DNA of 64,000 bases from Seison nebaliae (GCA_023231475.1 JALJEE010002328.1:1-64000); one strand, 5' to 3'. Positions 7,536-58,947 are shown, counted from the stretch's first letter. Made by a program: numbers and translations. Notes: generated by a model from the sequence alone, not told the origin.

Positions 7536-10442
7536 ATGCAAGGACAATGCAGTATTCTGTTAATAAAGAATTATCTCTTAATTATATTGATAAGATTGCA
7601 TAAAACTTATGGTATTGAGGGGAAGAATCATGATGAATTAACTTATCGAAATATTAATGAATGTTCTGCCAATCATTCGCTAATTCCGGTGACGTATTAC
7701 GCAACGAACAATATCTGCAAAATTGAAAGTTGCTTTCAACAAAACCAAGTCAATCTACGCAATGTTTTTCTCCTTTCTCTCATCATCCTTCTTCATCATC
7801 ATCCTTATTGAATATTTTGTGCAAAAATTTTAGATTTTTTATAAATGGAATGCAACACTTTATGGTAAATTTAGTACTTCATTCACATTCAATTGTTACG
7901 AACCTGAAACTAATTTCGTATTAGATAGTTGGCAACAAGTTTTTCCAAATTTAAATTATTTAAAATACATCTGATTCCTAGTTACTATATTCATTAGTTT
8001 TCTTCACAGTAATTGTCGTAGCTGTTGTTGGTAACAGTTTGGTAATTTGGACAGTTCTCGCTCATCGACGAATGAGAACAGTTACCAATTACTTTATACT
8101 CAATCTTGCAACGGTTGATATCGTTAATCCAATATTCAATGTTGGATTCAACTCATATTTTATGGTTTAATCTCTATTTGAATTCACTTTAACTTAACTC
8201 AATTAATTATCATAAATTCTTCAAAAAAAATAATTTAGGTAACTCAACATTGGCCATTTGGAGTGATGTACTGTTATGTACAAGACTTTATAACTTCCGT
8301 GTCAATATTAGTGAATGTGATAACATTGTCTGCGATTTCTGTGGATCGTTATCAAGCAATCTTATACCCAATGAAGTTTCACATGTCTAAGAGAAAATCG
8401 TTGACAGTTATCATAGGTATGTGGTTGTTTGGCTTTATAATTGGAGCTACGCATACACCCTTCATGAATATCATTTATCATATTGTACCATTAAATTATC
8501 AAATATACTGTCAAAGTTCCGCACAAAAATTCGATACATAGTTCTCCGAATTTATTTTCAAAAAAATTTCAAAAATTTGATTTCTTTATTTTTAGTTGGA
8601 CTTGGTTCTTCTTTTTCGTTACTTACATCCTTCCAATTATTACCATCAGTTTTACTTATATTCGTATTGCAAACTTCTTGTGGAGACATCAAGAGATTGG
8701 AGAAGTAACAGAAAGTCAATTGGAATCCATTCGATCAAAAAGGCGTATAGTAAAAATGATGATATTCCTTGTCATAATTTTCAGTTTATGCTGGCTACCT
8801 CAACACACCTTTTTTTTAGTTCGAACATTTTACCCAAAAATTACCGAAGTCAAGTTTATTGGACACATTTATTTGGTGTCATACATGATAGCAATGTCAA
8901 ATTGTATGTATAATCCATTCGTTTATTGTTGGTTGAATGCAAGGTTTCATTTCTCCTTCAAGAAATTTTTTAATTAAAATTTTTTTTAAATTTCCATAAT
9001 CTATTTCCTCGTATAGATTCCGTAGATGTTTCAAATTTGCTTTCCGCTGGTTACCATTTAAACCATGTGTTTGGACAGAACAGGATGAATTTGAATTAGC
9101 TCAAGAAAATGCTAAGACAAGAACATTTGCAGCTGCCGCTTTAGCTACATTATCAGCAGTTCAAATGAAATCTGCATTAAATCGCCCAGCGCAAAATAAT
9201 CGAAATCAAACTCAAAAAAATAAATTGAAGAGTATGATGTCGATGGACGAGAATTCTTGTAGGAATATAGTTCCATGTCTTTTAAGTACGAAACGAAGTA
9301 GTGATGGAACTGCATCATCGATCTCATCACAACCGAATATTAAGAATCGTACAACTTTACTATTAGAAATAATTAATAATAAGAAATTGGAAGATAAACA
9401 ACTTTCAAAACCTTCATCTACCACAATCCAATTACATCGTTTAACAAATTTATGGAGTAATCGAAAATTTCCGTTAGGTCGTCGAAGTACATCAACAAGT
9501 GAACAAAGGAAATCGTTCACGAATGAATTGTTATCTAGTAAGTCAGCAAAACATTCTGTTCATTATCTTCCAACATCTCTATCATCAGATGCTTCTAACA
9601 AAAATGCATTCCATGAGATGACGATAGAATTGGAAAAAAAGTTGAAAGAAACCTCAAATACGGGAACTGACGACAATTTGACGAAAGAAAAAAAAATAAA
9701 ACGATATTCAACAATTGATATGTCCAAATATTCGTATCAAGAACATGATGAATGTTGTAATGATGAAACGAAATTGCCCATCACAATCAAACGATATTAT
9801 CATTCAACTGATTCGAATAAATCATTTCTCGGTGCTGACACGAAGAAAGAAGATAATTATGGATCAGTTAATTGTATTCAACAGAATGGCAACGGAAATA
9901 AGAACGATTTTGATTTCCAACACCACCATCATCATGGCGATGTTAATGATGACGATGGTGATAATATATCAACGAACACAACAACATCTGCCTCCCATCA
10001 TCAATTATGTGACCAATTTGCACAAACTGAATTCGATGAAAGTTGTCTTTCACTTTGTGATAAATTGACAATATTCCAAAATTACCTAAACAATAACAAC
10101 GATATCATCTTCCTCCATTCATCCAATTTCTATGGTATTCAAAATGATTCATTCGTCGCTTTAATCTCATCAAAATTAAGCGACTCCGAACCATATCTAC
10201 AACGCAATGATCAATTAAATTATTCTACCATATCCAATAAATTGGAGAAAGGTAAGAGTAATTATCAACAAAAAGCAGAAACGAAGCAACCAAAAAATAA
10301 ATTGAAAAGACATTCCACTCACCGTCGCAAACAGCAATTGAACTTAAGCAGAACATATACATTAGCTCCGTTGGCGGATGACGAAGAAGATGATTTATTT
10401 ATGAATGATACTCAATCGTTAATTGATGATCATAAGAAATGA
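7536..10442 (+). CDS. Tachykinin-like neuropeptide receptor (class A GPCR), 7 exons
   Basis: Introns 7764-7833, 7865-7924, 7939-7981, 8165-8238, 8541-8595 and 8944-9016 restore one frame: ...WQQLLYS...GNSLVIWTVLAHRRMRTVTNYFILNLA...HWPFG...AISVDRY...CWLPQH...YNPFVYCWLNARFRRCFKFAFRWLPF. These are tachykinin-receptor motifs. The start codon is less certain. Confidence 0.88.
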
Positions 10443-10639
10443 AAATAATTTAAATAACTTGTTGTCTCATTATCTAATTCTTCCCTCTTTTTATTAGTAA
10501 ATACATTTGCAACAATTTAATTTGAAAAATTAATTTATTTAACTGAAATGGGGTAGAGAAATGTTTTTTAGACTTCATAAGATGATGTTACGGATAAGGA
10601 TATGATAGAAGAAAATAACAAGAAAGAAACATTGATTTT

Positions 10640-58100: not shown

Positions 58101-58947
58101 AAAAAAGATGAAATCAAATTATAAAATAATTGAACTTCTTGAATATATCTCATCCAAATGGAGTTTTTTAGTGACATCCCGAACACGTGATATTTTACCA
58201 TCCGTTCCTTTGATTTGATGATTATGGACAATAGGCATATTTATAATTCGTTTAATATTATTGCAAGTCTTATGATCAAATTGTAATTTTGTATGTAATT
58301 TTTGTGAAACAGATTCTGATATTGAAAGAAAATAATATTAGAAATGAAATTGTAATAAACGAACCAGCTAAATCATCCAAATTTTTTATTGATGATGTTT
58401 CATGAAACATTAATATTCCCCTTTCTCGTATTATCGACCGTAAATCTGTTAAAGATGTCATTGTAAGTGTCGCTACTCGAGGTTTGGACCATCTTCCCGG
58501 AGATTTCAATGCCTTTTCTTCGAACCGTACCCATCTATTGTAAAATGATTTTTAAAAAGATGTTAATTATCATTATTATTTATTTAAAATAATGAGAATA
58601 ATATAATAATACCTTGCTGCTTCTCGCCATACAGAATTTTGATTAATTTCTTCTCTTAAATTAATTGTACAGAATTCGTTCAATTGGCAAAACAAAGGAG
58701 GAATATGCAAATCAAGACTATGCAACCGATTTCTCAACAAGTGACGACTGGGAGCTGATGATGTTAGAGGCAAAGGAATTGCCTGAACATTTTTCTTTTT
58801 CGATGGTTTGGGCGTTAAATGAGATAAAATTGTCCCACGTCTTCGACCTTTATTCTCCACAACTTTTATTTTGGTATCATTATCAGTAAAAGATAAAGCA
58901 ACATGTCTATGTTTAAGTTTGTCGCTTGCTAAAGATTTATCGCTCAT
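55137..58947 (-). CDS. SLC4 bicarbonate transporter (anion exchanger / Na-HCO3 cotransporter family); possible extra 5' exons up to ~59690
   Basis: [88 protein letters not shown]. At least ten introns. Confidence 0.92.

Follow-up and report, generated by a model that had tools for sequence, protein, structure and literature searches.

The introns in one stretch of Seison DNA raise a question: does this animal still read the start of an intron as other animals do? In animals, neither the purine at donor position +3 nor the U1 pairing box is expected to vary. An earlier note on this DNA had counted about 67 donors beginning GTT against 6 others. We repeated the count over the whole stretch, called the window below (64 kb of compact, AT-rich animal DNA, GC ~0.3). 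Seventy introns in 17 genes are predicted from the DNA: 64 begin GTT, placing U at +3 in the RNA, and the remainder are the same six as before (GTA 4, GTG 1, GTC 1). A purine stands at +3 in five of the 70, which departs from the GTRAGT consensus. The main count excludes an uncertainly modelled gene at 59.1-60.4 kb; its eight donors (GTT 6, GTG 2) would bring GTT to 70/78. The count confirms that about nine in ten predicted introns of the window start with GTT, where animals usually have GTA or GTG, and the rule by which the splicing machinery of Seison recognises the start of an intron has likely changed.

The window is not intron-poor: 70 introns in 17 genes over 64 kb amount to about four per intron-bearing gene, a density that refers to this window only. 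All 70 introns are GT-AG, GT/GC-AG being assumed in the models. The genes and their donors are as follows.

7536..10442, plus strand: GPCR, which we take to be tachykinin-receptor-like; introns 7764-7833, 7939-7981, 8165-8238, 8541-8595 and 8944-9016, all GTT
10783..11258, minus strand: small unnamed gene, unsure model of the lowest tier; donors 11246 GTA and 10966 GTT
12667..23638, plus strand: laminin chain; introns 23049-23106 and 23314-23514, both GTT, placed by frame restoration
25260..26095, minus strand: unnamed 244 aa gene; donors 26029 and 25742, both GTT
26540..26955, minus strand: RRM protein; intron 26930-26878, GTT
27087..27777, plus strand: unnamed 200 aa gene; introns 27277-27320 and 27527-27570, both GTT, placed by frame restoration
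27948..30059, plus strand: C2HC zinc-finger gene; donors 27961, 28127, 28328, 28683, 29048 and 29797 GTT, 29569 GTA
30150..30860, minus strand: NDUFB10; donors 30799, 30616, 30430 and 30296, all GTT
32569..34048, plus strand: Peptidase M16 family gene, presumably UQCRC2-like; donors 32587 GTTATT and 32694 GTGAGT, the latter of canonical type
34238..35128, plus strand: gene that we assume to be glutathione S-transferase theta-like; donors 34344, 34497 and 34697, all GTT
36306..36689, plus strand: small secreted cysteine-rich protein; intron 36510-36560, GTT
36823..39346, minus strand: "PAN" gene; donors 39283, 38987, 38805, 38568, 38400, 37597, 37307 and 37004, all GTT
41547..44311, minus strand: SLC6 transporter with 10 introns; donors 43926, 43556, 43289, 43115, 42835, 42545, 42091, 41883 and 41670 GTT, 42374 GTCAGT
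45429..46409, minus strand: Endonuclease G-like gene; donors 46061 and 45790, both GTT
47399..48464, minus strand: stomatin (Band 7); donors 48457, 48282, 48076, 47818 and 47704, all GTT
48893..50829, plus strand: nucleotide pyrophosphatase/phosphodiesterase; donors 49313, 49802, 50063 and 50311, all GTT
55137..58947, minus strand: SLC4 bicarbonate transporter; donors 58364, 58135, 57916, 56411, 56246, 55853, 55727 and 55382 GTT, 58612 and 55609 GTA

Five donors that had been offered as examples (7764 GTTTTT, 8541 GTTCTC, 23049 GTTAAC, 27961 GTTCTA and 36510 GTTAAT) are present in both the sequence and the gene models, and the tallies for stomatin (5/5 GTT) and NDUFB10 (4/4) were reproduced. 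For SLC6 the bias held and the figure changed, from 8/9 to 9/10; the "PAN" gene is all GTT as described, with 8/8 donors at 36.8-39.3 kb in place of 10/10, and Pfam did not confirm a PAN domain in it. Pfam likewise returned no match for the exons of the 244 aa gene or for single exons of the glutathione S-transferase theta-like gene; in NDUFB10, Pfam positions run on continuously at 54 across the 30616 junction.

Several individual genes deserve comment. The laminin chain lies nearly all in one 10.4 kb open frame (12655-23064, plus strand, 3470 codons), and small genes near it have an intron every 100-300 nt; heavy intron loss from the long gene is suggested. The GTA donor of the C2HC gene at 29569 is unsure and may belong to a terminal exon: exon 29116-29568 (plus strand) can be skipped in frame, or ends at its own stop just past that donor. 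Alternative splicing at this rare non-GTT donor is possible. The public protein P0082, found with an SLC6 exon and labelled at NCBI as a Seison nebaliae protein, matches the minus strand exactly at every residue, with 13 gaps, which makes the window Seison DNA. It joins the endonuclease G-like and SLC6 genes through a 1213 nt "intron" (45538-44326, minus strand); this fusion is probably an annotation error, because the endonuclease G-like gene ends in a stop of its own near 45429. Apart from the genes, the window holds a multi-copy repeat at 40020-41347 (summed contig depth up to ~550, versus 30 elsewhere), with open frames at 40009-40443 (plus) and 40481-40819 (minus) that have no Pfam match. 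Likely transposon remains lie at 1-1541, 31016-31329 and 61369-62755; they include a reverse transcriptase fragment at 62084-62413, and the other labels were given by eye.

How much signal is left at the other donor positions? Position +3 carries 0.63 bit and +5 carries 0.33 bit; +4 and +6 hold 0.01 and 0.06 bit. T at +4 (34/70) equals background, with no preference for U there. The earlier note had seen no AGT consensus at +4 to +6 and G at +5 as a minority. A minority it is (19/70), but a weak tail is left, as G at +5 exceeds its level of 0.06 in intron bodies (p = 3e-8). True GTT donors are distinguished from 327 decoy GTT sites by pairing in the canonical U1 register (p = 2e-6). The six non-GTT donors have stronger flanks, among them CAG/GTCAGT, AAG/GTATTA, CAG/GTAAAT and AAA/GTGAGT, and exon-end AG is found at 3/6 of them versus 6/64 GTT donors (p = 0.025). 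Acceptors are TAG (0.66), AAG and CAG (0.17 each), with no GAG (-3 G 0). The introns have the GT...AG ends and pyrimidine-rich 3' end of the U2 type, and the U12-type donor GTATCC (motif per PMC3488318, in its AT form) occurs in 0/70. The branch-point motif YTRAY, in 29/70 introns against 33.4 +/- 4.1 in shuffles, shows no excess.

We compared these donors with those of relatives through the SLC4 gene, whose protein in the window is sister to a clade with a Rotaria protein (SH-aLRT 99, in a quick tree of 35 rows). An SLC4 alignment scan of metagenomes kept 80 loci, mostly intronless, and seven distinct intron-bearing ones were analysed; all outgroup donors come from this one gene family. Two loci, L038 (GC 0.32) and L047 (GC 0.29), group with Rotaria with a support of 100. 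Their 18 donors are GTA 16, GTG 1, GTC 1 and GTT 0, and their tails are stronger (+4 A 13/18, +5 G 8/18). Five SLC4 introns are common to L038 and Seison by residue and phase (56411, 55853, 55727, 55609 and 55382): from L038 to Seison, GTA becomes GTT in four, and one is GTA in both. Because GTA stands in the bdelloid clade at exactly the shared positions, old introns have been rewritten where they stood, from GTA to GTT. The bias is real and lineage-restricted against bdelloids, and it has spread over introns older than the lineage. The earlier proposal that donor +3 was re-specified in the Seison lineage is supported by this comparison, bdelloid-clade orthologs having kept GTA, and by the base composition discussed below.

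Elsewhere, GTT donors are a minority: the five other, unplaced SLC4 loci have 2/24, both in L050. This AT-rich locus has GTT at 2/6 donors, 1399 and 2399 (GTTTGT and GTTAGT), both with a G+5 T+6 tail. HMM-greedy GTT calls (one in L038, two in L042) were dropped by close-guide spliced alignment. A second, low-depth contig set covers the window at 7000-26000 and 36700-56600 and is ~85-90% alike in exons (~10-15% diverged); its introns are unalignable and almost the same length (66 letters against 67 at 8947-9012, for instance). The match enters the intron to +3 (8946), +4 (56243) and +5 (55849) and then stops, and in these three cases its ends hint at constraint on GTT.

What might have changed in the machinery? 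U1 pairs with CAG/GUAAGU (PMC9311317), and counted along this pairing +3 faces U1 position 6. Only U is favoured at +3, both C (1/70, p = 6e-4) and A (4/70, p = 6e-8) falling below intron composition; for this reason A is proposed as the partner of +3. We put at about even the case for a Seison U1 snRNA with A for U at position 6 of its 5' end, which would pair with U+3; the U1 of Entamoeba, described below, is a precedent. A broader statement, that U1 or U6 has A opposite +3 and that nearly all ancestral introns were rewritten from GTA to GTT with no intron loss or stricter signal, fares slightly better than even in our estimation. The A-6 U1 would dock in the normal register, over exon-end purines, G+1, U+2, U+3 and sometimes G+5. 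The few GTA, GTC and GTG donors would rely on extra pairing, by exon-end AG or a full AGT tail, and the remaining specificity would come from the short introns (median 53 nt for the 64 firmer ones) and from pairing of U5 with the A-rich ends of exons. The change may plausibly have been slow: drift would be tolerated at weak donors, variant and standard U1 would coexist, the variant would win, and the introns would follow.

The mean canonical-U1 pairing score is 5.0 in Seison and 6.6 for bdelloid donors; A at U1 position 6 lifts the Seison score to 6.0, a rise that follows by construction. Several points weigh against an A-6 U1. Most known donor shifts came without snRNA change, a U6 change or G-U wobble at U6 G44 could yield the same bias, and exon-end AG compensation fits a U5/U6 trade-off equally well. 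Moreover, both G-1 and G+5 are missing at 38 of the 64 GTT donors, so that a variant U1, too, would form only a short duplex. No snRNA reached the Rfam gathering score in the 64-kb window, in which two chance matches (E ~0.8) were returned. A scan with a U1 pattern gave none in viral contigs. In prokaryotic assemblies it gave five U1 snRNA genes, all from other organisms and of eukaryotic type with a standard pairing box; their presence in these five assemblies (L081-L085) is probably due to contamination.

Among the alternatives to an A-6 U1, we consider possible, if rather improbable, that the snRNAs are unchanged and that proteins (U1C, LUC7, PRP8, or the loss of U1 snRNP parts) prefer U+3, maybe with U6 G44 wobble. 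Protein-linked +4 shifts with invariant U1 and U6 are documented (PMC10581693), Cyanidioschyzon lives entirely without U1 (PMC11347168), and the predicted U1 duplexes are weak at most Seison donors. However, an unchanged G44 would pair best with C+3, which is found once in 70, and the literature searched, by broad queries rather than protein by protein, holds no report of a U+3-selecting protein. More doubtful is a changed U6, in which A would replace the ACAGA-box G opposite +3 and U+3 would be selected after the hand-over from U1. Position +3 later faces U6 G44 and pairs weakly with it when A or G (PMC11732430); Cyanidioschyzon has a compensatory U6 change opposite +4 (PMC10581693), and a preference for U alone would be explained as well by U6 as by U1. 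Against this, the ACAGA box is invariant in the 240 fungal species of PMC10581693 and typical in Entamoeba (bioRxiv 10.1101/2022.06.08.495308), and the U6-read positions +4 and +6 are empty in Seison.

It is very unlikely that selection on +3 was simply lost and that T-rich mutation pressure filled the position. Composition does lean that way: intron bodies are 48% T, +4 and +6 have decayed to background, and T follows GT in 43/71 cases (0.61) inside the 64 firmer introns, compared with 0.32 in coding sequence, 0.43 in intergenic sequence and 0.41 at all sites of the window. Yet 64/70 lies well above the highest of these values (p = 1e-8). Because GTT exceeds every background and T makes up only 0.48 (237/490) of positions +4 to +10, AT-richness is no explanation of the +3 bias, as the earlier note had maintained. 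Equally AT-rich bdelloid loci have no GTT (0/18), and the 25 introns tested with homologs include 22 GTT. A worst-case swap, applied to every intron with any non-GTT alternative, leaves 44/70 GTT (63%), which is above 0.43 (p = 6e-4) and no higher than 0.61 (p = 0.43).

We regard as highly improbable, too, that intron placement from DNA alone created the bias. The gene model knew only GT/GC and AG, ignored donor positions +3 to +6 in its scoring, and was followed by hand curation. The curation was not blind. It removed four non-GTT calls (55490 GTC; 36867, 48883 and 40557 GTG) and one GTT (58726), all judged unneeded, and shifted two GTA calls to a near GTT (10961 to 10966, 37297 to 37307); three curated introns can be read through in frame. 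Posterior sampling from the uncurated neutral model in 14 regions gave 78% GTT, and 80% among introns no longer than 80 nt, rather than the curated 91%; with a 90% prior for GTA/GTG, 60% GTT remained. No frame-keeping GTA or GTG donor lies within 24 nt of 51 of the 64 GTT introns. Such an alternative does exist at 3/8 donors of the "PAN" gene (GTA), at 36510 (GTA 6 nt upstream) and at 34697, which is tied with a GTA 3 nt upstream. A whole-window self-trained gene finder (59-67 GTT among 99-113 calls) merged genes and made calls in transposon remains, and was replaced by per-gene runs.

Homologs and public models were brought to bear on the same placements. With profiles of non-Seison homologs, all GT/GC-AG alternatives within 75 nt that keep the frame were scored, and the curated donor came out first in 24/25 cases: SLC6 10/10, SLC4 9/10 and GPCR 5/5, the last with a profile of 45 non-Seison GPCRs. 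Margins were small (0.8-4 bits) at 7764, 57916, 58135 and 41883, with 0.8 bit at 7764. The one miss, SLC4 55382, was beaten by a GTA by 6 bits; the spliced aligner with a bdelloid-clade guide chose 55382, and an intron of L038 occupies that site. That aligner gave 7/11 GTT on Seison SLC4, picking GTG at 58186 and adding an in-frame GTA intron at 56672, yet returned 0/18 GTT in bdelloids. The SLC6 junctions are an exact map of P0082, and with any cut allowed this map has exactly one GT-AG reading at each of its 13 junctions. Public Seison protein models are themselves predictions and give no independent proof of junctions. Indeed, the public GPCR model P0202 is visibly wrong in this window, with two introns misplaced and a profile score of 282 vs 411, a consequence for annotation.

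A standard U1 displaced by one base, in a shifted or bulged register that reads A/GUUAAGU, has largely been refuted and is scarcely credible. Such pairing exists in humans (PMC11162779), and the exon ends of Seison are A-rich (-1 A 38/70 vs 24.7 expected). It needs G+6, however, found in 1/70; the shifted register shows no gain over decoys (p = 0.25), and bdelloid donors too carry A at -1 (9/18). The residual signal is in the canonical register only, with G at +5 and not +6; therefore, shifted or bulged pairing is all but excluded. Equally hard to credit are recent transposon insertions with a GTT end (introners), for although some Seison SLC4 intron positions are absent from L038, all-against-all BLAST among the introns yields only AT-rich matches of 13-49 nt, five positions are shared with L038, and four of those introns switched in place.

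If the A-6 U1 or a like change is real, Seison is an animal with a recoded major spliceosome. Most of its predicted introns have U+3, and relatives have A+3 where the introns are shared; together they form a natural experiment on the joint evolution of a recogniser and its numerous targets. Most earlier cases are intron-poor protists with strict signals; Seison offers many weak, short introns and close outgroups. Within the literature searched, a U+3 majority in an animal is a new host and form of U+3 donors, which are themselves known from Entamoeba. No animal with such a majority was found in that literature, most subscription papers lying outside its scope, and a prior report is possible. 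The available text of a Seison genome paper (PMC8351084), according to which mRNA-Seq has been produced for the species, contains neither "snRNA" nor "spliceosom", and one unrelated "splice".

How does Seison compare with known systems? Among humans, shifted-register 5' splice sites make up ~1.5% of sites (PMC11162779, PMC9311317). The Seison donors resemble them in the GUU start, often after A, and differ in being the majority class, with neither G+6 nor a gain from shifted pairing. In Saccharomycotina, a switch to U at +4 is linked to METTL16/SNRNP27K, with U1 and U6 invariant (PMC10581693). Both cases involve a change of one donor position between relatives, genome-wide there and seen here in a 64-kb window, but in Seison +4 is at background and +3 has changed. 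Micromonas and Thecamonas kept a standard U1 despite donor shifts (bioRxiv 10.1101/2022.06.08.495308). The bdelloid loci L038 and L047 share with Seison short, AT-rich introns, A-rich exon ends and common intron positions; unlike Seison, they use GTA (16/18) and never GTT, with a stronger +4 A and +5 G. The closest likeness is in Entamoeba, where GUUUGU(U) donors co-evolved with a U1 bearing ACAAAC (Roy and Bowser, bioRxiv 10.1101/2022.06.08.495308). That genus is intron-poor and holds to a strict hexamer, GUUUGU at 87.9-89.5% (same source). The Seison window shares its U+3 rule, GT-AG ends and AT-rich genome. In contrast to Entamoeba, the window has GTTTGT in 1/70, free +4 and +6 positions, G at +5 in 27%, and about four introns per intron-bearing gene, in an animal host.
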